Shown here piece by piece: positions 11,194 to 36,074 of a stretch of DNA of 64,000 bases. Location of the stretch: the NCBI GenBank assembly GCA_963662715.1, contig OY759724.1:1690662-1754661 (forward strand), in the 5' to 3' direction. The position numbers were made by a program, and so were the translations under genes. The notes beneath the pieces were generated by a model, which was given only the letters and a program-made list of their open reading frames with translations, was not told the origin of the DNA and searched no databases. This DNA comes from Candidatus Omnitrophota bacterium (lineage in GTDB: Bacteria > Omnitrophota > Gorgyraeia > Zapsychrales > JANLHA01). How positions within the stretch are numbered: the first letter of the stretch is position 1; each line of letters opens with the position of its first letter.

Positions 11194-12735
11194 TTATTTT
11201 CCGAGTGATAACGGGCCGGCGGTTAAACTGTCCCCTTGGATATTGTCTGTCTTAAATTCTTTAAGCAGACGGTAGAATTCTTTATAATAGCGTTTGATAT
11301 GACGGAAATATTGGTAAATTAATGAAATTTTGGGCTCCAACGGTTCCAGCTCCAAGACGATTTCCTTCATGACCTCATCCTGACTCATGTCCAGAGTCTC
11401 CTTGAACTGGTCCTTCAGCATTTCATGAAACTGCCGGAAGATATTGCTTTCGCTGAAAGGCATCTGATTGAACGTGTCTTGAAAGTATTTATGGACATGT
11501 TCTTTCTTGGAAAGAGCCGATTGAATGCATTCTGATTCATAGTGCTTTTGAGTGATCAGCATGGCCCGCCGTTTCCGGGCCGGGGTGAGGAAATTGTCTA
11601 ATTGAGCGAACTGTTCTGAAATGATCTGCAGAAAGAATTTATAGGGAAACTGAGTAAACCCCACGATGCCTTGTTGTGTTTTTCCCCGCTGGAGTTTCAG
11701 CAGGACATTGTCCATTTGCGCGAACGAATCGGAAAATATCTGGTAGCTGGGAAGAATAAGCTCGCTGTACAGTTTGTCCCGGCCGGAGAAAGGGGCCAGT
11801 TCATAGGTTATGAGGGCTTTAAACTCTTTAAGGTTTAAAGAATATAATAAAGGCAATCCGACGGCCAGCACCCTTTGTTTAATCAGGCCGTTGAAAGTGT
11901 TCAGATTGCTTTTGCGGACGATAACTTTAGGTTCTGCGTGCAGGATCAGAGTCTCGGGCGCAGGTATGCGAAGCACGATGCAAATTTCGTTGATGATTTG
12001 TTTGAGCCTGGGGTTCGTTTCGAGATTAATCACCAGACCCGGCTGAATGGGGGGGTCAAGGACAAAGGTCGTGTGTATCGTTTGGGTCGTGATCAAGATG
12101 CATATGGTTTGAATCAAGATAATAAAAATCCATATCAGTTGAGGCATGTCCGGACTGTTCTGCGCTAATAAAAGGAGCCATAAGGCGAAGCAGAGAGGGG
12201 ATAATATGAAAATAATAAAGCTTAAATAAACCATGGGGAAAGAGAGGATCGAAAACAGGAAGAGGAACAGGGAGATTTTATGCGATGCACTTGGGTCGAC
12301 CAGGATCTCTTCCGTGTCGTGGCGGATGTTCATGTCATCGCTGGATGAAGACATGGCGATATAGAGTCCTAAAAAGGCCCCGATCGCCGTGACACAGAGC
12401 CGCATCATGCTTTCGGTGAGTTCCAGAAGTTCCTGAGTGTTGCGAAAGATATCGAAATATAAGATCGCCAGAAAAAGCAGGCTTATAAAAAAAGTCCCGG
12501 CCAGCATTTTCAGCCTCTTTTTAACAAAAAGAAGGCTTAGCCATATAGCCGGAACGATCGAAACGGCATCGACCAGAATAAACTCGACCCCTGGAATTTT
12601 TTCCACGCGTAACCAGCTGGTAAAGTTGTCCAGGGAATTGACGAAGAAAAGGTAGATCAAGGCAAAGATGCAGGCAGAGAACGAGAGAGAAAGAAAGTCC
12701 AAGAATGAAAGCTGTTTATTGGCTTGTGGATTCAT
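11194..12735 (-). CDS. hypothetical polytopic membrane protein with C-terminal soluble domain
   Basis: Multiple hydrophobic helices in N-terminal half; no confident family assignment. Confidence 0.45.
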   Translation of the reverse strand: MNPQANKQLSFLDFLSLSFSACIFALIYLFFVNSLDNFTSWLRVEKIPGVEFILVDAVSIVPAIWLSLLFVKKRLKMLAGTFFISLLFLAILYFDIFRNTQELLELTESMMRLCVTAIGAFLGLYIAMSSSSDDMNIRHDTEEILVDPSASHKISLFLFLFSILSFPMVYLSFIIFILSPLCFALWLLLLAQNSPDMPQLIWIFIILIQTICILITTQTIHTTFVLDPPIQPGLVINLETNPRLKQIINEICIVLRIPAPETLILHAEPKVIVRKSNLNTFNGLIKQRVLAVGLPLLYSLNLKEFKALITYELAPFSGRDKLYSELILPSYQIFSDSFAQMDNVLLKLQRGKTQQGIVGFTQFPYKFFLQIISEQFAQLDNFLTPARKRRAMLITQKHYESECIQSALSKKEHVHKYFQDTFNQMPFSESNIFRQFHEMLKDQFKETLDMSQDEVMKEIVLELEPLEPKISLIYQYFRHIKRYYKEFYRLLKEFKTDNIQGDSLTAGPLSLGK

Positions 12736-12995
12736 CGAAATATAAATCTCTGGGTTGCCAAGGAAGTAATTTCCCCAAAATGAAAAACGTTGTTATAATA
12801 GAATTTTCTTGAGAGCCGTTTCCTGCACATGCATCCGCAGGGGGGTAAGACTTCTCTATATTATACAATAATAATGCTATTATGTAATAGGGTTTATTAA
12901 AACTCTGGCATCATTAAATTTATATTATATCAGGAAGAGTTTTTTTCGCCGGTTTTCCCAGAAGGCGAAATGATTATTTTAAAAAAGGCTGCACC

Positions 12996-13775
12996 ATGAT
13001 GCTTGAAAAAGATATGATGAAAACTTCCGGAGCCCGGCTGTCCCGGACAGGCCAAAGGATTTCTTCTAAAATCGGCAAGGCGATAGGAGATTATCAGCTG
13101 ATTGAGGAAGGAGATAAAATTCTCGTGGCGGTTTCCGGGGGAAAAGACAGCCTGACGATGTTGCATTTGCTGAAGGCCAGACAGAACTGGTCTCCCGTGT
13201 ATTTTGAAATTAAAGTGGCGCATATCAAGCCTGACATGTCTTGCGGAACAGGATGCCCGGAGGCAGAGATGAAGAATCTCCTGGAGAGAATCGGCGTGCC
13301 TTTTTATTTGCGGGATATTCAGGTGTTGAATGATGAGCAGCGGACAAACTGTTTTTGGTGTTCCTGGAACAGACGCAAGGCTTTGTTTGAGTTGGCGGAG
13401 GAAGCCGGCTGTAATAAGATCGCTCTGGGCCATCATAAGGATGATATCATCGAGACAATTCTGCTGAATTTATTCTATAAGGGGGAGATATCGACTATGC
13501 AGCCCCGGCAGGTTATGTTTAAAGGACAATGTGTCCTTATCCGGCCGCTGTGCTACGTTGAGGAATATATGACACGCAAGTTCGCGCAGGAGAACGGGTT
13601 CCCTTCCCATCGCAGCGAATGTGCTTTCGGCCAGAACACCAAAAGGCAAAAGATGAAGCAGCTTATTCTTGATCTTCAGAAAGACACCCGGGGGACCAAT
13701 ATTAAGACAAATATTTTTAACAGTGTGGCCAGAGTGAATGCCGAATATATTTCGTTAAAGGAAGAAGATGCCTGA
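12996..13775 (+). CDS. ttcA: tRNA 2-thiocytidine(32) synthetase TtcA (PP-loop ATPase)
   Basis: SGGKDS PP-loop, ALGHHKDDIIETILLNLFY block matching TtcA, paired Cys motifs. Confidence 0.75.
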   Translation: MMLEKDMMKTSGARLSRTGQRISSKIGKAIGDYQLIEEGDKILVAVSGGKDSLTMLHLLKARQNWSPVYFEIKVAHIKPDMSCGTGCPEAEMKNLLERIGVPFYLRDIQVLNDEQRTNCFWCSWNRRKALFELAEEAGCNKIALGHHKDDIIETILLNLFYKGEISTMQPRQVMFKGQCVLIRPLCYVEEYMTRKFAQENGFPSHRSECAFGQNTKRQKMKQLILDLQKDTRGTNIKTNIFNSVARVNAEYISLKEEDA

Positions 13776-22139: not shown

Positions 22140-22234
22140 AGCCTCTGACGCGGAAGGGCGGTGTCGCCCTGTTCGGTGATGCCGGGCATAACACAGACGG
22201 AACATAATATTTAAATTTGTACAAAGCAGGGAAT

Positions 22235-23158
22235 ATGAAGATTGTTTTTTTTGGCAGTGATGATTTTGCCGTTACGAATTTGGAGCAGCTTGTGCTTTCG
22301 GGACGGGAGATTGCCGCTTGTGTCACCCCTCCGGACAAGGCCAGGGGCCGGGGGATGCACACGCAGGCCTCTGAGGTCAAACAATGTGCCCGGCAGCACC
22401 GTATCCCCGTTTTTCAGCCGGAAGATATCAGCCAGAAGAGTTTTCTGGAGGATATTGCTTCATTGCGGAGCGACCTTTTTGTCGTCATTGCTTACGGGAA
22501 AATCCTTTCAAATGAACTTCTGGCCATCCCGCGGTTGTTTTCCGTAAATGTGCACGCATCCCTGCTGCCCCGTTATCGCGGTGCGGCTCCGGTCAATTGG
22601 GCCCTGATCCGGGGGGAGCAGGAGACAGGAGTTTCTGTTATTAAAATGAATCCTCAATTGGATGCCGGAGACATATTATCCCAGGCCCGTTTGAAGGTTG
22701 AAGATGCCGACACGGCTGTTTCTCTGCGGGCTAAATTGGCCCGTTTGGGTGCGGATTTGCTGAATCAAACAGTGGCCGATATTCAGGCCGGGCATGTTCA
22801 GGCTATTCCCCAAGATAAAAGTCAGGTGACGTTTGCTCCCAAGCTGACAAAAGATTTGGGGCTGATCCATTGGCAGGATTCCGCGTTTAAGATCCACAAC
22901 ATGGTCCGCGGCTTACAGCCATGGCCTTCTGCCTATACATTCTATAAAGATAAATTGTTGAAGATTCTGGAAACAGAAATCGTCGGTTCCTTCGGGGGAG
23001 TCCCCGGGACAATCGTGGAAATTCTGCCTTCGGGTTTTGTCCTGCAGACAGGGGACAAAAGCCTCCTGGTGAAGAAAGTCCATTTGGCGTCCGCAAAGGC
23101 CATGCCGGCCAAAGATTTTATTCTGGGACATCGGCTTGCTGTCGGGATGACATTCTGA
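22235..23158 (+). CDS. fmt: methionyl-tRNA formyltransferase
   Basis: MKIVFFGSDDFAV ... SLLPRYRGAAPVNWALI formyltransferase motifs. Confidence 0.8.
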   Translation: MKIVFFGSDDFAVTNLEQLVLSGREIAACVTPPDKARGRGMHTQASEVKQCARQHRIPVFQPEDISQKSFLEDIASLRSDLFVVIAYGKILSNELLAIPRLFSVNVHASLLPRYRGAAPVNWALIRGEQETGVSVIKMNPQLDAGDILSQARLKVEDADTAVSLRAKLARLGADLLNQTVADIQAGHVQAIPQDKSQVTFAPKLTKDLGLIHWQDSAFKIHNMVRGLQPWPSAYTFYKDKLLKILETEIVGSFGGVPGTIVEILPSGFVLQTGDKSLLVKKVHLASAKAMPAKDFILGHRLAVGMTF

Positions 23159-23215
23159 TGCCCGCCAAGGAAAGACTTTGGGAGAGATGGATCCCCCGGC
23201 TTTTTTTCTAATGCC

Positions 23216-26200
23216 ATGATCGTTTTTTTTATCGGAACAATATGTATTTCCGCCGGGTTGGGCACGATTGCCTGGCTTATGTGGAAGGAAAAAAGGATAG
23301 AAGACTCTATCCGCAAGAAAAACGCCCCGGTCTATAATCAGCCTGTCACAACCTCGGAGCTTTTGGACCGGATAGGTTTGCGCCGTGAGCCGCTACCGTC
23401 CCCGAATTCCCCCAAGGCTTCCCCGGGAGAAGAGTCGCTGGACGTTTTTTCCGCTTTAGATGATACGAATAAAGAAGATATCAACAAGGCTCTGGAACTT
23501 TCAATCCAACATGATGATTTAACGAAAGAACACCGCCATATGCAGGAGCATCATGAGAGGCTGCAGGCGTTGATTGTTGATAAGAAACGTATTTTAAAGA
23601 ACACGCGCAGAGCTCTGCGCAGCGAACGCCGGTATATTCAGGAGTTTGACCATATGCGGGACCGTTTGAATCATAAGATCGAAACAGCGAAGGAAGAGCG
23701 CCGGATGATTCAAAATAATCTTAAAGAAAAACAGGCTTCAGGCCGGGCTTTTCTGACGCGTGTCAATAATTTGGAACAAAGAATTAAAGAGCTGGAGACC
23801 TCTTTCCGGGAAAAGGAGCTGGCCATCAAGGATAGTATGATAACAGTCCAGAAAGACCAGAAGCGGGCTGCTGAAATAAAAGAGAAGATACAGGAAAGAG
23901 AAAAGACCGTTCAGGAAAAAAGCGATAAATTGCTGGATTTGATCGGCCGGATAAAAAAGAGAGGCGATACGGCCATGGAATATGTCCGGCAGCAGATCGG
24001 TATTGATATCCGGATATGGGAGGAAGAACTCTTGGCGCCGCCGGTCGTCGAAATTCCTGAGCCGGAAGAGAAAATGGTCCCGGCCGGGGAAGCTGCCGGT
24101 GAAGGCCTGGAAGCCGAACAACCTCTTGAAGAGGGCGTTGAGGCGGCCGCTCAGGAAGCCGTCCCCGTTGCCGGGGAGGCCCAGCCTGTGCCAGAAGAAC
24201 GGGGAGGGGATGCTGTCCTGGCTGATGTCCGGAACATCGGGATTATCGCTCATATCGATGCCGGTAAAACGACGACCACGGAAAGAGTCCTTTATTATAC
24301 CGGGGTCATTCATAAAATGGGGACGGTCGATCAGGGTAATGCGACAATGGACTGGATGGCCCAGGAGCAGGAACGGGGGATTACGATCACATCGGCCAAT
24401 ACCACATGTTTTTGGAAAGGCAAGAAAGTGAACATCATCGACACTCCCGGACACGTTGATTTTACGGTTGAGGTAGAGCGTTCCCTGAAGGTTCTTGACG
24501 GGGCGGTTGTTGTGCTGTGCGCCACAAGCGGCGTGCAGTCTCAGACAGAGACGGTATGGCGGCAGGCCGACCGGTATCATGTCCCGAGGATATTTTTTAT
24601 TAATAAAATTGACCGTATGGGTGCGGACTTTTTCCGGGTGCTTGAACAGATTGAAGACCGTATCGGAGCTAATGTGGCGGCCGTCCAGATCCCTGACGGC
24701 ACGGAAGACCAGTTTAAAGGCATTGTGGATGTGATCCATCAGAAGTATATCCATTACCTTGATGACGAAGGAATGAAGTTCGAGGAACAGGACATCCCGG
24801 AACCCCTGAAAGCGAAAAGCCAGGAGGTGCGCAAGATCCTGTTGGAAAGATTGTCCACGTGTGATGACGATATCATGGAAAAAATGCTGGCAGAACAGGA
24901 AATCTCCGCAGAAGACATTGTCCCTGCGATCCGGCGCGCTGTTGTTAAAAACGCCTTTTTCCCCGCTTTGGTCGGAACAGCCCTGCGCAACCGCGGGGTG
25001 CAGAAAGTCCTCGATGCCATTGTGGATTACCTGCCTTCGCCGTTGGAGGTTCCTCCGGTGTCCGGGACACGGCCCAGGACAGAGGAAACCCTTGAACGGC
25101 ATCCTTCGGTCGCGGAACCTCTTAGCGCGTTGGTTTTTAAGATTGCCTCCGATCCTTATGTCGGGAAGTTGTTCTATACCCGGATTTATTCCGGAATCAT
25201 TGAATCCGGAGGCACGGTTTACAACTCATCCTCAGGCAAGCGGGAGCGCGTTGCGAAGATCGTTGTGATGCATGCCAATAAGCAGGAAATTGTCCCGCGC
25301 GCCGGTGCCGGGGAGATCGTCGCTTTAGTCGGCCTTAAGACAACGAAATCCGGTGATACGCTGTGCGCTGAGAACCAACCCATCCTCTTGGAAAGTATTG
25401 AATCTCCGGAGCCGGTTATCTCAATGGCCATTGAACCGCAAACCAAGGCGGACCAGGATAAGATGGGGCTTATTTTAAGGAAATTCCTCGATGAAGACCC
25501 GTCATTGAGGATGTCCTATGATCATGAGACCGGCCAGACACTCCTGTCCGGGATGGGGGAACTGCATTTGGAGATTATTATCGACCGTATGAAACGGGAA
25601 CATAACCTAGAGACGAATATCGGACGTCCGCAGGTCGCTTACCGGGAGACGATTAAAGAGAAAGTGGAGAAAATCGAGGGCAAATTTATTTCCCAGACAG
25701 GCGGTCGCGGGCAATACGGGCATTGTGTTATTGAAATGGAACCCAGTGAAAAACCGGGAGACGGAATTAAATTTATCGATAAAATCAAAGGGGGCGTCAT
25801 CCCGCGCGAATATATCCCTTCCGTTGAGAAAGGCATCAATGCCGGTTCGGAAAGCGGTATTCTGGCCGGGTATCCGGTCACGGACTTTACTGTGACTCTC
25901 GTTGACGGGTCTTTTCATGAGGTTGATTCGAGTGACATTGCTTTTCAGCTCGCGGCCAAGGCCGCCCTTAAAGAAGGGCTGAGGCGCGGAAAATCCGTAT
26001 TCCTTGAACCGATCATGAAGCTGGAATGTGCCGTCCCGGAAGAATTCATGGGAGCGGTGATCGGGGATTTAAACAGCCGCCGGGCTAAAATTATTAATAT
26101 GGGCGTGCAGGGAAAGTTAAAGACGGCTTTGTGTGAAGTCCCCTTATCAGAAATGTTTAATTATGCCAATGCCCTGCGTTCTTTAACTCAAGGGCGGGCG

Positions 26201-26308
26201 TCTTTCTCCATGGAGCCCTGTTTTTATGCGGAAGTTCCCTATCATATTTCTGAAAAAATAAAAGCGGAGAGGGAAGAATTGATGAAGAAAAAGGAAGATG
26301 GGAAATAG
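23216..26308 (+). CDS. elongation factor G homolog with 335-aa N-terminal extension (TM helix, coiled coil, acidic Pro/Ala/Glu linker)
   Basis: Uninterrupted 1030-codon ORF; residues about 336-1030 are complete EF-G ([33 protein letters not shown] domain IV tip); N-terminus starts with hydrophobic helix then K/E/R-rich heptad-like sequence. Confidence 0.7.
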
Positions 26309-26588: not shown

Positions 26589-27608
26589 ATGCCAGAATTT
26601 CGTAAAGATCCCGTAATTGGCCGTTGGGTGATTATTGCGACGGAACGGGCCAGACGCCCGGGAACGATTATTGATCCTCAGCGCGTCGATAAAAAAGACT
26701 CTCAAGAGTGTCCTTTCTGCCATAACCAAGAGCCGGAGATATACACCGTCCCCAATAAAGACCCTCAAGCCTCCAGCCCCTGGAGTGTTAAGGTGACTCC
26801 CAGCGGGACTCCGTTATTAAAAATGTCGCCTCAGTTCAAACGCCGGGGCCACGGACTTTATGATGTCATTAATGATTACGGAGTGCATGAGGTCGTGATA
26901 GAAACTCCGGATCATATCGCGAATATGGCTGATTTGAGTGAAAAGCAGATCGCGTATGTGATGAATACCTATGTCTACCGTTTTAAGGAGTTAAGCCAGA
27001 ACAAAAATTTTCTTTATGTGATTGCCTATAAGAATTACGGCTGGGCCGCAGGCAGCCGTAATATCGGACATTCCCGTTCCCAAATTATCGCTTCCTCTGT
27101 GAATCCTTTGGCTGTGAAAGAACAAATGTCCCGGGCTAAAAAGTATTTTGATTATCATGACCGGTGTTTGTTCTGTGACCTGATCCGTCAGGAAAAAAAT
27201 GACAGGAAGCGGGTTGTGACCGAGTCGGAGCATTTTATCGCTATTACACCCTTTGCCCCCAGGTTTTCCTTTGAAATATGGATCCTTCCCAAAGAGCATC
27301 ATTGTGATTTTGTGCATGGCGTGGCGGGCAAGGAACTCGATTTAGCCAGAATTCTCAAAGATACGTTAACGCGGTTGAAAATCGGGCTGGCGGATCCGTC
27401 CTACAATTATGTTATTCAAACGGCGCCGTTCCGCAGTCAGGAGCGGGGGGCCCGCTGGCCGACCATTGAAGAGGATTATCATTGGCATATTGAAGTTATG
27501 CCCCGTTTAACCCGGGTGGCCGGATTTGAGAAAGGCTCCGGATTTTATATTTGTTCTATCCCCCCCGAACACACGGCGGAATTTTTAAGGGAGGTAGAGT
27601 TGTCATGA
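26589..27608 (+). CDS. GalT-like hexose-1-phosphate uridylyltransferase paralog 1 (HIT branch III), catalytic HxH degenerate (GHSRSQ)
   Basis: RKDPVIGRWVIIA N-terminus, CxxC zinc motif, but HPHGQ-equivalent reads HSRSQ. Confidence 0.65.
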   Translation: MPEFRKDPVIGRWVIIATERARRPGTIIDPQRVDKKDSQECPFCHNQEPEIYTVPNKDPQASSPWSVKVTPSGTPLLKMSPQFKRRGHGLYDVINDYGVHEVVIETPDHIANMADLSEKQIAYVMNTYVYRFKELSQNKNFLYVIAYKNYGWAAGSRNIGHSRSQIIASSVNPLAVKEQMSRAKKYFDYHDRCLFCDLIRQEKNDRKRVVTESEHFIAITPFAPRFSFEIWILPKEHHCDFVHGVAGKELDLARILKDTLTRLKIGLADPSYNYVIQTAPFRSQERGARWPTIEEDYHWHIEVMPRLTRVAGFEKGSGFYICSIPPEHTAEFLREVELS

Positions 27609-28612
27609 GTGAATTACGCCGTGATCCTATTATCGGCCGGTGGGCGATCGTTGCGGATAAAGAAGAATCCTGGGGACCGGATAATTACGATAAGGAAGTT
27701 CACGAACGTAAACATAAGGCCATCTGTCAGTTTTGTCCCGGCCGGGAGAAACAAACACCTCCGGAAGTTGACGCCATCCGGCCGCAGGGATCGGCTCCGA
27801 ATAAACCGGATTGGATAGCGCGGGCCGTCTCCAATAAATTTCCTGCTTTGCGTATTGAAGGTAATTTGGACAAACGTGCGGACGGTATTTATGATGTGTC
27901 TAACGGTGTGGGGGCGCATGAAGTTCTTATTGAAACGCCGGATCATGACCGGGATTTGGCGGATTTGTCCGTCGATGAGATTGTGAATGTTATCCGTCTG
28001 GCCCAAAGCCGGTCTATAAGTCTTGCCAAAGACCGGAGATTCAAGTATATTATGCTCTTCAAGAATTACGGGCAGTCCGCAGGAACGTCCATTGAGCATG
28101 CCCACAGTCAAATTATTGCTTTGCCCCTGGTGCCCCGTTATGTCCTGGAGGAGCTGGAAGGTTCTTTGAACTATTTTAAATTCCGGGGTCGCTGCATCTA
28201 TTGTGATATTATTGCCCAGGAACAGCAGGAGCAGGAAAGAATCATTTTGGATAACGAGGCGTTTATTTCTTTCTGTCCCTATGTCCCGAGATATCCTTTC
28301 GAGTGCTGGATCCTGCCGAAAGAACATTCCTCGGATTTTTGCTATCTGTCGGATCATGACCGCCATCAACTGGCGTTGACCTTGCAGGACGTGTTAAAGC
28401 GGATAAAAACGACTTTAAAAGATCCGTCTTATAATTTTTATTTGCATGTTCCCCCGGTCAATTACAAGGAGTCACAGAGTTACCACTGGCATATTGAAAT
28501 TGTTCCGCAGTTAAGCCGGGTCGCAGGTTTTGAATGGGGGACGGGGTTTTATATCGTCCGTACGGAACCCGGGGTCGCGGCTGAAACACTACGCAATTAT
28601 TCTCCGGAATAG
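27606..28612 (+). CDS. GalT-like hexose-1-phosphate uridylyltransferase paralog 2, catalytic motif intact (HAHSQ)
   Basis: ATGA overlap with paralog 1; RRDPIIGRWAIVA, CQFC, EHAHSQIIA. Confidence 0.65.
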
Positions 28613-32308: not shown

Positions 32309-32666
32309 AAAATTTTTTTGTCAAAAGTTAACCGATTGAATATGTACTGGTAATCTGATATGACGCAAAAAACATGTGAAAATATGATCATTGCCGGCAC
32401 TCCATATTTATCAGGGAGGAGAGACGATTGCGGCATAAAAAAGAATAACAGGAAAAAAGCCAATATATTTCAACGATTTGTTTTGATGCGGAAGAGATCC
32501 CGGTATAATAACTTGGCTGGCCTTAAGGCGTTTTGTCCGGCATCCCAGAAAACAAGCCGGAAAATCATGCCGGTCCCGGGGCACAATCAAACGGTATCCC
32601 GGTCAAGGAGAAGCAACTCAGGTGTCTGTGTCTTTTCCCCGGGATACAAAAATAAGGGAGGCGACC

Positions 32667-35600
32667 ATGATTAAACAAGGATATAGGAAAAGCGGGTTTT
32701 ACGCACTGATTATCACGCAATTCTTAGGTGCTTTTAATGACAATGCCTTTAAACTGGTGATCGCCTTTATTGCTGTCGATCAATTCGTTCAGCAGCAAAG
32801 CGGAGCCCTTTACTTATCCCTCTCCGGAATGGTCTTTGTTCTGCCCTTTTTGCTGTTTTCCACCTTTGCCGGCTATCTGGCCGACCGGTTCAGTAAACAG
32901 CATGTCATTATCGCGACAAAAATCCTGGAACTTTTTATTATGCTGCTAGGGTTCTGGGCCCTTTTAAGCGGCGGGTTCTTGGGCTTATTAACCGTGCTGT
33001 TTTTTATGGGCCTGCAGAGCGCTTTGTTCAGCCCTTCCAAATATGGCATTCTTCCGGAAATATTAAAAGATGAGAAACTTTCCGAAGGGAACGGTCTTAT
33101 TCAGCTCTGGACCTACGCCGCTATTATCCTTGGACAAGCCGGCGGCGGTTATCTGATTCACATAACACAGCCTCACGTCTACAAAGCGGCGTATGCTTTT
33201 ATAGCCTGTTCTGTCTTAGGCCTTATCGGCAGCTTCTTTGTCTGCCGTGTCCCGGCCTCTGGCACGCAAAGGTCTTTTGAGAGGAATGTTTATAAAGAAA
33301 TGATCACCAATATTAAACTCGTGAGAACGTACCAGCCGATATTCCTCTCGATCCTGGGGTTGTTGTTTTTCGGTTTTCTCAGTTCCCTGTTCCATCTGAA
33401 TATCCTGCTTTATGCCCGCAAGATTATGGGGATCGGCCATATGGATACAAGCATTTTGCTGATCGTTCTGGCCGTGGGTATAGGCGGCGGCAGCATGCTG
33501 GCCGGAAAATTGTCTGACCGGAAAATAGAGCTTGGGCTTGTGCCTTTCGGATCGATCGGGTTGGTCGTTTTTTCCATTATGCTGGGATTTGTTCATCATT
33601 CTTATCTTCTGGTTGCCGTGACGTTATTTCTTTTGGGCTTGTCCAGCGGTTTCTATATCATCCCTTTAAACACTTTGATCCAGCGGGAAAGCCCGGTTGA
33701 CCGCCGCGGGCAGTTTCTGGCAACAAACAATTTCCTGTCATTCTCGGCGATACTGGCCGGCTCGTTTGCCGTTTATCTGTTCCGTGATCTTCTGCATTTT
33801 AATGCCGCGGATATTTTTGTCGTTGCCGGACTCATTACAGCCTGCGGGGCCGTTTATATCTGCTGGCTGCTTCCTTACGCTCTGGTCCGTTTTGTTATTT
33901 TGATATTGACGCACACGCTTTACCGGATACGTGTTATTCACAGAGAGAACGTCCCGGAACAGGGCGGGGCCCTGCTTGTCAGCAATCATGTGTCCCTGGT
34001 TGACGCTTTAGTCATCCTTGTTTCGATTCAGCGGCCGGTCCGTTTTTTGATCGGCCGGGCCTGTTATAAAACGAAATGGGTAAATCCTTTTTTCCGCCTG
34101 GCGAAAGGCATTCCCATCTCCAGCGATGACGGGCCGAAAGAGCAGCTGAAATCCTTGCGGATTGCCAGGGACGCCGTAAAAAACGGGGAACTGGTGTGCA
34201 TTTTTGCCGAGGGACAATTAACCCGCACCGGGAATATCTTGAAATTCAACAAGGGGCTGGAATATATCATGCAGGGTATGGACTGCCCGGTCGTCCCGGT
34301 GCATCTGGACAGGATTTGGGGAAGCATTTTCAGCTTTGAAGGGGGAAGGTATTATTATAAGATTCCCAAGATTATCCCTTACCCGCTCACAATCACTTTC
34401 GGGGAGCCGATGCCCGCCCGTTCATCGGCTTTTGCGATACGGAACCGTGTTAAGGAATTGGGGGCAGAGGCATTCTCTTACCGTCTTGAGGAGCGTTGGA
34501 CACTCGCGGAAGCGTTTTGGCGTGAGGCGCGCTATCATCCTCAGCAGCTTTGCATGGGAGACTCCTCCGGGAGGAAAATGACTTACGGCCAGACACTTGT
34601 TGCGGCCGTAGCCCTGGCCGACAGGCTGAAAGAACTCCTGGCGCAGGAACGTTTCGTCGGGGTGCTTATCCCGCCGTCCGTGGGGGGCGCTTTAACAAAC
34701 ATTGCGCTTTCCATGTTAAGGAAAGTCCCGGTCAACATGAACTACACCTCTTCTCCGGAGGCCCTGCGTTCCATGTCGGAGCAGTGCGGGATGAAATGTA
34801 TTATTGCATCAAAAAAACTCCTGGAGAAGACCGGGCTGGAACCCCCGGGACAGACGGTTTTCATTGAAGATGTTTTTGCTTCGATTCGTTTGAAGCATAA
34901 AATACAGGCGGCGTTTAAGTCCATCATTTATCCGCATTGGATATCCTTCGGGCTTACCTTCGGGCGGAGGACATCCCGCTCTATAGATGACCTGGCCACG
35001 GTGATGTTCACCAGCGGCAGCACCGGGGAACCCAAGGGCGTTATGCTGTCGCATGCCAATGTGACAAGCAATCTGGAAGGATTGTACCAGGTTTTTAATG
35101 TCAACAGCCGCGACGTGGTTTTGGGCGTCCTGCCTTTTTTCCATTCTTTTGGCTTCACGGCGACACTCTGGTTCCCGCTTATCAGCGGTATGAGTGTCGT
35201 TTTTCACAGCAACCCTTTAGACGCCAAGATGGTGGGCCGTCTCGCAGAAAAGCACCGGGCCACGATATTGATGAGCACCCCGACGTTTCTCAACACGTAT
35301 GTCCGGCGTTGTGAGCCGGAAGCCTTCTCAACTTTAAGGCTTGTTGTTGTGGGGGCCGAGAAGCTAAAGGCGAGTATTGCCGAAGCTTTTTCAGACAAGT
35401 TCCGTATAGACGCCATGGAGGGGTACGGCTGCACTGAATTGTCCCCGGTCGTCTCTTTAAATCTTCCCGACTACCGCGACAAGGGGCCGGTTCAGAAGGC
35501 TCATAAACCCGGAACGATCGGCATGCCTCTTCCGGGGGTGGCCGTGAAAATTGTTGACCAGGATACCGGACAGCCCAAAGGGCCTGATGAGGAGGGCCTT

Positions 35601-36074
35601 TTGCTGGTCAAGGGGGCGAATATTATGAAAGGTTACTTGAACCGGCCCGAGAAAACGGCGGAAGTTGTGCAGGACGGGTGGTACGTAACCGGGGATATCG
35701 CCAGACTGGATGAAGACGGTTTTATCACGATTACTGACCGTCTGAGCCGTTTCAGCAAGATTGGCGGGGAGATGGTCCCTCATATTAAAATAGAAGAGCA
35801 TCTTCACAAAATACTGGATTCAGAGGAGCCGGTGTGTGTCGTGACAGCCGTGCCGGATAAGAAGAAAGGGGAACGGCTCATTGTTTTGCACAAGAAGCCG
35901 TTCAATGTTGAAACGGTGCTGGAACAACTGCAGACAACTGATCTTCCGAAACTTTGGATACCCGATAGAGAGGCCTTCTTCCCTCTGGAAGAGTTCCCGT
36001 TGTTGGGATCAGGGAAATTGGATATCGGGGCTGTTAAACGTACGGCTTTGGCTTTGGCCGGAGAAACGGTTTGA
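32667..36074 (+). CDS. aas: LplT (MFS lysophospholipid transporter) / PlsC-type acyltransferase / acyl-ACP synthetase (Aas) fusion
   Basis: N-terminal 12-TM MFS, HX4D acyltransferase motif NHVSLVDALV, C-terminal AMP-binding (TSGSTGEPKGV); start trimmed to MIKQGYRK. Confidence 0.75.
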   Translation: MIKQGYRKSGFYALIITQFLGAFNDNAFKLVIAFIAVDQFVQQQSGALYLSLSGMVFVLPFLLFSTFAGYLADRFSKQHVIIATKILELFIMLLGFWALLSGGFLGLLTVLFFMGLQSALFSPSKYGILPEILKDEKLSEGNGLIQLWTYAAIILGQAGGGYLIHITQPHVYKAAYAFIACSVLGLIGSFFVCRVPASGTQRSFERNVYKEMITNIKLVRTYQPIFLSILGLLFFGFLSSLFHLNILLYARKIMGIGHMDTSILLIVLAVGIGGGSMLAGKLSDRKIELGLVPFGSIGLVVFSIMLGFVHHSYLLVAVTLFLLGLSSGFYIIPLNTLIQRESPVDRRGQFLATNNFLSFSAILAGSFAVYLFRDLLHFNAADIFVVAGLITACGAVYICWLLPYALVRFVILILTHTLYRIRVIHRENVPEQGGALLVSNHVSLVDALVILVSIQRPVRFLIGRACYKTKWVNPFFRLAKGIPISSDDGPKEQLKSLRIARDAVKNGELVCIFAEGQLTRTGNILKFNKGLEYIMQGMDCPVVPVHLDRIWGSIFSFEGGRYYYKIPKIIPYPLTITFGEPMPARSSAFAIRNRVKELGAEAFSYRLEERWTLAEAFWREARYHPQQLCMGDSSGRKMTYGQTLVAAVALADRLKELLAQERFVGVLIPPSVGGALTNIALSMLRKVPVNMNYTSSPEALRSMSEQCGMKCIIASKKLLEKTGLEPPGQTVFIEDVFASIRLKHKIQAAFKSIIYPHWISFGLTFGRRTSRSIDDLATVMFTSGSTGEPKGVMLSHANVTSNLEGLYQVFNVNSRDVVLGVLPFFHSFGFTATLWFPLISGMSVVFHSNPLDAKMVGRLAEKHRATILMSTPTFLNTYVRRCEPEAFSTLRLVVVGAEKLKASIAEAFSDKFRIDAMEGYGCTELSPVVSLNLPDYRDKGPVQKAHKPGTIGMPLPGVAVKIVDQDTGQPKGPDEEGLLLVKGANIMKGYLNRPEKTAEVVQDGWYVTGDIARLDEDGFITITDRLSRFSKIGGEMVPHIKIEEHLHKILDSEEPVCVVTAVPDKKKGERLIVLHKKPFNVETVLEQLQTTDLPKLWIPDREAFFPLEEFPLLGSGKLDIGAVKRTALALAGETV

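Follow-up and report, generated by a model that had tools for sequence, protein, structure and literature searches.

Elongation factors of bacteria are generally regarded as cytoplasmic proteins that diffuse freely. The original copy of elongation factor G (EF-G), the EFG I-type product of fusA, has as its hallmark a place in the str operon (rpsL-rpsG-fusA-tuf) (PMC3150367). Second, close EF-Gs lying away from that operon are EF-G1A/1B of Pseudomonas aeruginosa, gcEFG2 and the 'EF-G 2' of Pseudomonas putida (6n0i); they have the standard fold (PMC3150367, PMC3832671, PMC4342817), and we found no mention of an anchor, a coiled coil or an N-terminal extension for any of them. The same superfamily holds paralogs with specialised ribosomal roles, namely EF-G2/EFG II, spdEFG1/2, the mitochondrial EF-G1 and EF-G2 (RRF2), and Tet(M)/Tet(O). 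Here we analyse a 64-kb stretch of a Candidatus Omnitrophota genome (contig OY759724.1, positions 1,690,662 to 1,754,661; hereafter the window), in which one gene, at 23216..26308 on the plus strand, encodes a 1030-residue protein composed of a predicted N-terminal transmembrane (TM) anchor, a coiled-coil stalk, a disordered linker and a complete EF-G. This long EF-G has the same five domains including G', the same GTPase motifs and the same domain IV tip as the fusA product, and is unlike it in bearing the 334-residue anchor-stalk-linker, in lying outside the str operon and in coexisting with a canonical copy. It resembles the Pseudomonas and gcEFG2 proteins as a second close EF-G, whereas its duplication appears internal to Omnitrophota, unlike those of other extra EFG I copies. 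Where EF-G2, spdEFG and Tet-type paralogs have diverged cores, its specialisation would lie in the appended anchor. We describe an ordinary enzyme in a conserved, hitherto undescribed architecture that is predicted to be membrane-tethered, together with newly noticed free-standing relatives of the tether.

The layout has counterparts in other cellular machines. Escherichia coli ZipA begins with a TM helix at its extreme N-terminus, oriented N-out/C-in; a charged region and a long, flexible linker rich in Pro come next and lead to a globular domain, which binds a soluble machine on the cytoplasmic side. This is the same layout as that of the long EF-G, but the globular domain is an FtsZ-binding one rather than an EF-G, and ZipA is without the long heptad stalk; the likeness is an architectural analogy only. 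At the eukaryotic endoplasmic reticulum (ER), kinectin (KTN1), an N-terminally anchored coiled-coil protein, recruits eEF1-delta of the eEF1B complex and so sustains protein synthesis at that site; expression of membrane proteins falls when the interaction is disrupted (PMC12768868). In both kinectin and p180/RRBP1 an N-terminal membrane anchor precedes a coiled coil of great length in the cytoplasm, as in the long EF-G (PMC12768868, PMC3326322). Pfam and PDB searches revealed no sequence relationship between these proteins and the long EF-G; moreover, kinectin binds its factor without a covalent link, the long EF-G carries it within one chain, and kinectin's factor is a nucleotide-exchange factor as opposed to a translocase.

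In the two main surveys of EF-G and translational-GTPase paralogs (PMC3150367, PMC4342817), neither transmembrane segments nor coiled coils nor membrane association come up, with the word 'extension' being absent from the former and 'N-terminal extension' from the latter. Two large papers on Omnitrophota genomes report no such protein: EF-G does not figure in PMC10066038, and in bioRxiv 10.64898/2026.06.07.730766 it appears only as cargo of hypervariable regions. No description of an anchored bacterial elongation factor was found in the literature searched in full text, an absence that is not proof for all literature.

The N-terminal extension is conserved and constrained

The gene starts with an ATG at 23216, which is the first possible start codon past the upstream in-frame stop (the stop-to-stop frame begins at 23159), and ends with a stop codon at 26306-26308. 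As stated in the initial annotation, which was made from the sequence of the window by itself, this open reading frame (ORF) is uninterrupted over 1030 codons. That annotation also took the open frame upstream of the EF-G domain to exceed chance, and offered as an alternative an internal start at the Met of MVPAGEA (Met286).

Residues 1-334 match no curated family in Pfam or NCBIfam, yielding just generic coiled-coil noise (SMC, Rad50, FPP) far below the cut-offs. In a word-indexed search, whose index is saturated by coiled-coil words, the extension used as the sole query, also with its alignment, returned only P0001, a partial protein from an Omnitrophota metagenome-assembled genome that is 57% identical to it over 269 residues with a single one-residue gap. 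The full-length query retrieved dozens of proteins of 989-1185 residues with 52-80% identity, and all those with a source name come from Candidatus Omnitrophota or Omnitrophica. At least 25 full-length homologues, independently assembled and drawn from ENA, JGI, NCBI and Logan, keep the frame open and colinear from the same start, with no stops or frameshifts. The DNA that encodes P0001, contig L001, has the same start, MIIFFIGTMCIVVGLGTIAWFMW, right after the end of fmt, and the start follows the pattern MI(I/V)FFIGT. An alignment of 25 full-length members, to which the family-wide statements below refer, displays an identical order of parts (helix, EKK stretch, motif, spacer, coiled coil, linker, EF-G) in 25/25.

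Selection was gauged by comparing the window gene with two relatives. Synonymous sites are saturated (pS, the proportion of synonymous differences, ~0.8), while the corresponding nonsynonymous proportion, pN, is ~0.28 in the extension and 0.06 in the EF-G core; for the TM and juxtamembrane part dN/dS is 0.13-0.17. Met286 is not kept even in the nearest homologues. Because the homologues keep the extension open, pN lies well under pS and the internal Met is not conserved, the extension behaves as a coding region under purifying selection, and on these grounds it is very probably translated. The upstream frame is hence open beyond chance, as the initial annotation had judged, and its alternative of a start at Met286 is not supported.

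One could still suppose that the extension is untranslated, or that two genes were mis-joined, the product being a normal EF-G that starts around residue 335; a variant would have the protein exported via a signal peptide. Some public annotations do start later (P0006, P0039), and no clear Shine-Dalgarno sequence was found before the ATG at 23216. Against this stand the single open frame in at least 25 independent assemblies, the signature of purifying selection, the conservation of both the heptad register and the TM start where the internal Met is not conserved, and the homology of the extension to genuine free-standing proteins (see below). The export variant further meets a hydrophobic segment unlike a Sec signal peptide, and there is no obvious extracellular role for an enzyme that depends on GTP and the ribosome. 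We consider an artefact of this kind, in either form, very improbable.

A scan of a genome collection with the domain IV pattern GGRGQYGHC yielded 94 EF-G ORFs, mostly from other phyla, none of which has the extension. The pattern itself is not clade-specific, as EF-Gs of Firmicutes, Gammaproteobacteria, the candidate phyla radiation and others are matched.

Several public entries are shortened versions of the long form. P0006 (757 residues, beginning MWEEELL inside the stalk) and P0039 (745 residues) have late-called internal starts, and more generally the deposited proteins P0001, P0006, P0014, P0024 and P0039 start internally or are cut off by contig ends, and so lack the anchor and stalk. 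Such shortened long-form entries are named simply 'elongation factor G'.

A predicted membrane anchor and a juxtamembrane motif

Residues 1-23 (23216..23284, plus strand) constitute the predicted TM anchor. The 19-residue Kyte-Doolittle mean reaches 2.14 here, the maximum for the whole protein, and values of 2.1-3.2 occur at the extreme N-terminus of 25/25 members. In a structural model generated with AlphaFold2 (AF2) from the 25-sequence alignment (mean predicted local distance difference test score, pLDDT, of 72), residues 2-36 form a helix, within which G14 is nearly invariant in the family. The N-terminal TM helix that had been read from the sequence at the outset thereby holds up as a conserved hydrophobic helix, whose membrane insertion stays a prediction. 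Lys and Arg are wholly absent before the helix in all 25 members except two with probable mis-called starts, and the 15 residues past it contain 1-8 of them across the family and five in the window protein. Since Lys and Arg occur only past the helix, the positive-inside rule predicts an N-out/C-in anchor that leaves the whole chain from stalk to EF-G on the cytoplasmic side.

Two other interpretations of the N-terminus were rejected. The segment is unlike a Sec signal peptide because it has no positive n-region and its hydrophobic stretch extends over ~22 residues, and a cleaved signal peptide was discarded for these reasons. A lipoprotein was likewise dismissed, given that Cys10 is not conserved and that the residues preceding it do not form a lipobox.

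The anchor leads into residues 24-55 (23285..23380, plus strand), which comprise a basic juxtamembrane stretch (KEKR...) and the motif T-x-x-E-L-L-x-R-(I/L/V)-G-L, as delineated from the alignment and an AF2 helix at 46-52. The consensus of the fused members reads 'EKK ... TxxxLLxRxGL', and the motif is found in the free-standing relatives too. Residues 56-85 (23381..23470, plus strand) form a Pro-rich spacer, which varies across the alignment and is apparently disordered, with AF2 pLDDT of 32-44 and no secondary structure.

A stalk of conserved length and an acidic linker

In the AF2 model the helices at 2-36 and 46-52 are followed by disorder at 54-85, a helix at 86-248, two shorter ones at 251-261 and 265-272, disorder at 277-330 and the EF-G at 335-1030. 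The stalk thus occupies residues 86-272 (23471..24031, plus strand). Its continuous helix of 163 residues is modelled at a pLDDT of ~80-89 and, at ~0.15 nm per residue, would measure ~24 nm. Conserved hydrophobic positions recur with a period of 3.5 at a power of 384, compared with 29±18 in shuffled sequences, and 0/2000 shuffles scored as high. Spacings of 3, 4 and 7 between hydrophobic positions dominate, and the coiled coil of the window protein is free of Pro. The sole internal indel of the coiled coil in the 25 sequences amounts to 7 residues, i.e. one heptad, although the modules are just 15-60% identical. Single positions are also strongly retained, with E187 being invariant and L134 and L186 nearly so. 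Searches with the coiled coil against PDB and Pfam gave generic coiled-coil matches only. The periodicity, the spacings and the one-heptad indel mark the helix as a genuine heptad coiled coil and not a lone charged helix, and it would probably assemble as a parallel oligomer. The initial annotation had described about 200 residues of heptad-rich Lys/Glu/Arg sequence; the heptad character stands, and the length comes down to ~165-190 residues.

Between the stalk and the EF-G lies an acidic, Pro/Ala/Glu-rich segment, residues 277-334 (24044..24217, plus strand), marked as disordered by its composition and by an AF2 pLDDT of ~28-38. Counted from residue 278, its 57 residues include 15 Glu, 11 Ala and 7 Pro with a net charge of -14, in line with the acidic linker of about 60 residues that had been proposed. 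Across the family the linker ranges from ~50 to 150 residues, retaining its composition.

A linker of this kind could also belong to a sequestered reserve, that is, a pool of EF-G anchored at the membrane and freed when a signal triggers cleavage in the disordered segment. A long, protease-accessible stretch directly before an ordinary EF-G would suit such a device, as would a core indistinguishable from the canonical enzyme. However, the linker holds no conserved cleavage motif and varies freely in both sequence and length, plain sequestration does not need a 24-nm coiled coil of conserved length, and no protease gene is conserved nearby at the examined loci. We see only a slim chance that the protein is such a reserve.

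The EF-G core retains the features of the housekeeping enzyme

The C-terminal ~695 residues had been recognised from the start as a complete five-domain EF-G, and all our comparisons agree. The core (residues 335-1030; 24218..26305, plus strand) matches the Pfam domains GTP_EFTU (337-608), EF-G_D2 (635-718), EFG_III (731-803), EFG_IV (805-925) and EFG_C (929-1014) in the canonical order; the corresponding subdomains map on the plus strand to 24224-25039 (G with G'), 25118-25369 (II), 25406-25624 (III), 25628-25990 (IV) and 26000-26257 (V). Against TIGR00484, the NCBIfam equivalog for EF-G, residues 335-1020 score 988.1 bits over model positions 7-690/691, the cut-off being 659.4. Both AHIDAGKT and GGRGQYGHC are present. 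The P-loop, the catalytic His of DTPGH, the NKxD motif (G1-G4) and the GGRGQYGH tip are invariant in the 25 long forms and equal to the consensus of the canonical sister clade. Directly past the tip the long forms have Cys where most canonical sisters have Val; GHC is common in other phyla.

The core is 48-55% identical to the EF-Gs of Thermus thermophilus, E. coli and Staphylococcus aureus, and on average 69% identical to the canonical EF-Gs of related Omnitrophota. Its best-matching classical EF-G structures score ~820 bits, compared with 549 for mitochondrial EF-G1, 477 for RRF2 and 408 for EF-G2 of T. thermophilus (1wdt). Superposed on crystal structures of EF-G, the AF2 model attains a target-normalised Foldseek TM-score of up to 0.91. 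The core falls short of the EF-G2/EFG II models (NF009377, 529 against 890; NF058620, 467 against 1000) and of the tet_protect model (NF012153, 413 against 775), and stays far under the cut-offs of the models for Tet(M)/(Q)/(O). The mean identity within the cores of the long clade is 0.74, comparable to 0.73 within the canonical clade, and it is 0.69 between the two. In a matched pair of genomes, the long cores P0003 and P0002 are 92% identical and their canonical partners 89%. Since its motifs, clade identities, scores and fold all match those of classical EF-G, we place the core in the EFG I type and regard it as held under housekeeping-grade constraint.

Sub-functionalisation into a translocation-only or recycling-only factor was sought through diagnostic substitutions, and none emerged: no alignment column distinguishes long from canonical cores at ≥90% conservation in each clade. 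From the conserved motifs we infer a ribosome-dependent GTPase that would act in translocation, in recycling dependent on the ribosome recycling factor (RRF), or in both. Work on an L9-EF-G chimera reportedly established that attachment at the N-terminus of EF-G is compatible with ribosome binding. Ribosome complexes with this chimera, in which the fusion is at the same end, are available as PDB 4wpo.

This conservation bears on the main rival to an active enzyme, according to which the EF-G domain is a handle that parks idle or hibernating ribosomes at the membrane, in the manner of YqjD/ElaB/YgaM, ribosome-binding proteins that are anchored in the E. coli membrane. An anchor, a long stalk and a ribosome-binding domain would suit a tether equally well. 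Binding and inactivation of ribosomes by C-tail-anchored membrane proteins is on record (bioRxiv 10.1101/2024.08.16.608256), E. coli ribosomes have been captured with both EF-G and the hibernation factor RaiA bound (PDB 9pyc), and a low ribosome content has been reported for free-living Omnitrophota cells (PMC10066038). Nevertheless, a handle would need neither the GTPase motifs, nor the catalytic His, nor the domain IV tip, all of which are kept as tightly as in the housekeeping copy. The retention of the full set of catalytic motifs argues against a purely passive role, and ribosome parking, while it has to be taken seriously, strikes us as unlikely.

The long EF-G is a paralog that coexists with canonical fusA

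In a neighbour-joining tree built from 120 EF-G cores, 31 long and 89 canonical sequences fall cleanly into two clades. The former clade unites every protein that bears the extension along with the two that have late-called starts, whereas the latter includes all the ~700-residue proteins; the long forms are therefore a monophyletic clade of paralogs. On a 305,891-bp ENA contig, the long form P0003 and a canonical EF-G of 700 residues, P0027, lie ~93 kb apart. The P0003 locus reads MGDG-synthase-like, priA, fmt, [long EF-G], galT-like, galT-like, gap, the same order as in the window, and P0027 lies in rpsG-fusA-tuf-rpsJ, i.e. the str operon. With P0003 and the str-operon P0027 coexisting on one contig, the long form is an additional EF-G. 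The window gene is not in a str operon, being situated in priA-fmt-[gene]-galT-galT-gap, and as the operon of its relative holds a separate EF-G, it is not fusA itself but an additional paralog of the EFG I type. The initial annotation had spoken of a membrane-tethered paralog of the translational GTPases and raised the matter of a second, canonical fusA. The latter is present on the contig of this close homologue, and with the conservation and constraint it supports the paralog; membrane insertion and the function of the tether stay predicted.

The unusual, derived motifs HKMGTVDxGNATMDW and ATSGVQxQTETVWR are common to the long and the canonical EF-Gs of the window lineage (P0027 and others). 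The str-operon EF-G of another Omnitrophota lineage (L061:236-2335, minus strand), an outgroup supplied by the genome-collection scan, has the classical bacterial KLGEVHDGTATMDW and GVGGVEPQSETVWR at switch I and after switch II. This pattern points to a duplication inside the phylum, or possibly to gene conversion.

The extension belongs to a family of free-standing coiled-coil proteins

Fused members, that of the window among them, supplied a profile of the module minus its linker, which was searched exhaustively against 1.84 billion representatives. At E<1e-30 it recovered 98 proteins, most of them complete, free-standing and devoid of an EF-G; at E<1e-10 the number rose to 223. The representative library is clustered at 50% identity, and the full-length fusions are probably represented there by canonical EF-Gs. 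Almost all the matches have 200-675 residues and open in the same way as the extension, with the helix, the EKK stretch, the LLxRxGL motif and the coiled coil. A P-loop is absent from all 148 sequences retrieved (proteins P0122-P0269), one of which, P0137, breaks off at '…RNIGIIAH' and represents a long EF-G cut short. The free-standing proteins, noted at 300-675 residues, have no Pfam match, and where the source organism can be judged it is Omnitrophota.

Several free forms are complete genes within contigs, e.g. L005:11675-13660, L006:10001-12028 and L007:2474-3670. On L005 a long EF-G is followed by an IspD-like gene on the opposite strand and then, ~650 bp from the long EF-G, by a 661-residue free module protein (11675-13660). 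This protein matches the profile end to end (HMM positions 1-246, 156 bits, E=3e-47); the extension in the window, itself part of the profile, scores 275 bits (E=1.5e-83). Fused and free modules of related genomes are colinear at ~24% identity, with the coiled coil ungapped over ~170-180 residues. In addition, the free form P0176 and the canonical EF-G P0026, which is close to P0027, are each listed on a contig of 3,360,633 bp, probably the same one.

In place of linker and EF-G the free forms have a tail of 100-400 residues, rich in Pro, Glu, Lys and Ser, with a recurrent 'hxLxPDI(L/F)' motif that occurs in at least 69/147 free forms and in 0/25 fusions. Because the fusions lack this tail motif, we regard the window protein as a fusion derivative and not as one of the free-standing type. 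A gene for a cyclophilin-type peptidyl-prolyl isomerase (PPIase) stands immediately 3' of the free form in three loci, and the wider neighbourhood of the free form is also conserved, comprising IspD-like(-), XdhC, DUF134(-), PocR/GAF, a sigma-54 activator and a histidine kinase. These comparisons indicate that the extension is a homologue of a free-standing family of membrane-anchored coiled-coil proteins and not a one-off addition; given these relatives, the long EF-G would represent a pre-existing module joined to an EF-G duplicate. The monophyly of the EF-G cores suggests that the fusion arose once, this being its only support, as a neighbour-joining tree of the modules, in which the fused ones form three pure groups among the free ones on long star-like branches, is too poorly resolved.

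The existence of such relatives raises the possibility that the module is in essence a membrane scaffold, for instance in the organisation of the envelope or of division, with the EF-G as an add-on that moonlights or provides bulk. In this respect, the module does stand alone in many genomes, with a different tail, a distinct short motif and a neighbourhood of its own (PPIase, XdhC). However, across a deep clade the fused EF-G core is constrained like the housekeeping copy, which argues that the EF-G function of the fusion is used. We hold a scaffold with an incidental EF-G to be distinctly unlikely.

The fusion may also be read as a 'Rosetta stone' for the whole family, which would then be the bacterial counterpart of kinectin/p180, a platform organising translation at the membrane, with the long EF-G as its hard-wired version. 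In the free forms, the LxPDI(L/F) tail would serve as a non-covalent docking site for EF-G, ribosomes or a folding factor; a cyclophilin PPIase is encoded beside them. We put this forward as a doubtful extension of the argument.

Genomic context and other features of the window

The initial annotation had noted that the long EF-G sits directly downstream of fmt. The position is confirmed: fmt, encoding methionyl-tRNA formyltransferase (22217..23158, plus strand; TIGR00460, 280 bits against a cut-off of 201.5), ends 57 nt upstream of the long EF-G in the gene order priA-fmt-[long EF-G]-galT-galT-gap. This adjacency is present in the window, L001 and L002, and absent in L004 and L005. The long EF-Gs of distant members have other neighbours, DJ-1/PfpI and MMPL at one locus, and xanthine-dehydrogenase-type and IspD-like genes at another. 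As distant members occupy unrelated neighbourhoods, we assign the adjacency no functional weight and view it as lineage-specific. A functional link to initiation was accordingly rejected, the synteny being lost in those members. Scans for promoters and terminators, Rfam families and tRNAs furnished nothing relevant to the long EF-G.

Directly 3' of the long EF-G are two tandem paralogs resembling galactose-1-phosphate uridylyltransferase (26589-27608 and 27551-28612, plus strand), which match GalP_UDP_transf along with DUF4931/DUF4921 and HIT-like families. The pair is also found in the related contig L002. As listed, the two ORFs share 58 nt, and the second probably begins at a later codon. 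Farther downstream (32622-36074, plus strand), a 1150-residue fusion of an MFS transporter, an acyltransferase and an AMP-binding (acyl-activating) enzyme, likewise conserved in L002, resembles the Aas-type fusions of lysophospholipid recycling.

Across the 64 kb, tRNAs, rRNAs and Rfam families all remain below threshold. Nearly all the large ORFs are on the plus strand and the GC skew is steadily positive, consistent with a single replichore. The end of the window has a low GC content (0.39-0.43, against ~0.48 elsewhere) and holds two 350-residue transposases of the IS110 family (DEDD_Tnp_IS110, Transposase_20) at 58791-59840 and 61960-63009 on the minus strand, ~3 kb apart and alike at 349/350 residues (99%).

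Discussion

The gene is real, its extension is conserved and constrained, the motifs of its core are intact, and it is a paralog that accompanies a canonical fusA. Building on this, we infer membrane insertion, the orientation of the anchor, the oligomeric state of the stalk, enzymatic activity and the purpose of the tether. Somewhat better than evenly, we favour the reading that the long form is a second, specialised EF-G of an Omnitrophota lineage, active yet confined to the membrane, where it would serve ribosomes that make membrane and secretory proteins.

Under this proposal, a duplicate of the housekeeping EF-G (EFG I) would have been joined to an existing module of TM helix, motif and coiled coil. 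The TM helix would hold the protein in the cytoplasmic membrane, leaving its N-terminus outside and the remainder in the cytoplasm, and the coiled coil, of conserved length and probably oligomeric, would project as a stalk of ~24 nm into the cytoplasm. The acidic 57-residue linker may then function as a flexible leash to which RNA does not adhere. From the lengths of stalk and linker we estimate that the EF-G could act in the normal way on ribosomes within reach, ~25-45 nm from the membrane. Because its activity would be confined to this shell under the membrane, the translocase and/or recycling activity would be enriched for ribosomes engaged in making membrane and secreted proteins. Such a membrane-local EF-G would be analogous in its logic to the anchoring of eEF1-delta to the ER by kinectin.

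Several points weigh against a membrane-confined active EF-G, beginning with the lack of an obvious Shine-Dalgarno sequence mentioned above. At the examined loci the long EF-G has no conserved gene partner, Sec, YidC, SRP and RRF included, that would link it to the making of membrane proteins. The core, having no diagnostic substitutions, offers in itself no pointer to a specialised role. The topology is called from hydropathy and the positive-inside rule, and the AF2 model is that of a monomer, with the juxtamembrane motif at low confidence. The coexistence of long form and canonical fusA is directly visible on one contig only. The restriction to Omnitrophota is judged from the source names of ~6 members and from the 94-member control set. 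Finally, all the organisms that carry the long EF-G are uncultivated.

If the long EF-G is indeed held at the membrane, it would be, on any record that we found, the first elongation factor of bacteria to have a membrane anchor of its own. This makes testable the question of whether bacterial membrane-bound ribosomes have a pool of elongation or recycling factors of their own, as the eukaryotic ER does via kinectin. There is also a practical consequence: public annotations often trim the long forms to a normal-looking EF-G, so that the architecture is hidden and analyses of single-copy markers in Omnitrophota can be confused. More broadly, the comparison brings to light an uncharacterised family of membrane-anchored coiled-coil proteins. 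If the 'Rosetta stone' reading of this family were true, these mostly ultra-small bacteria would spatially partition their elongation machinery.

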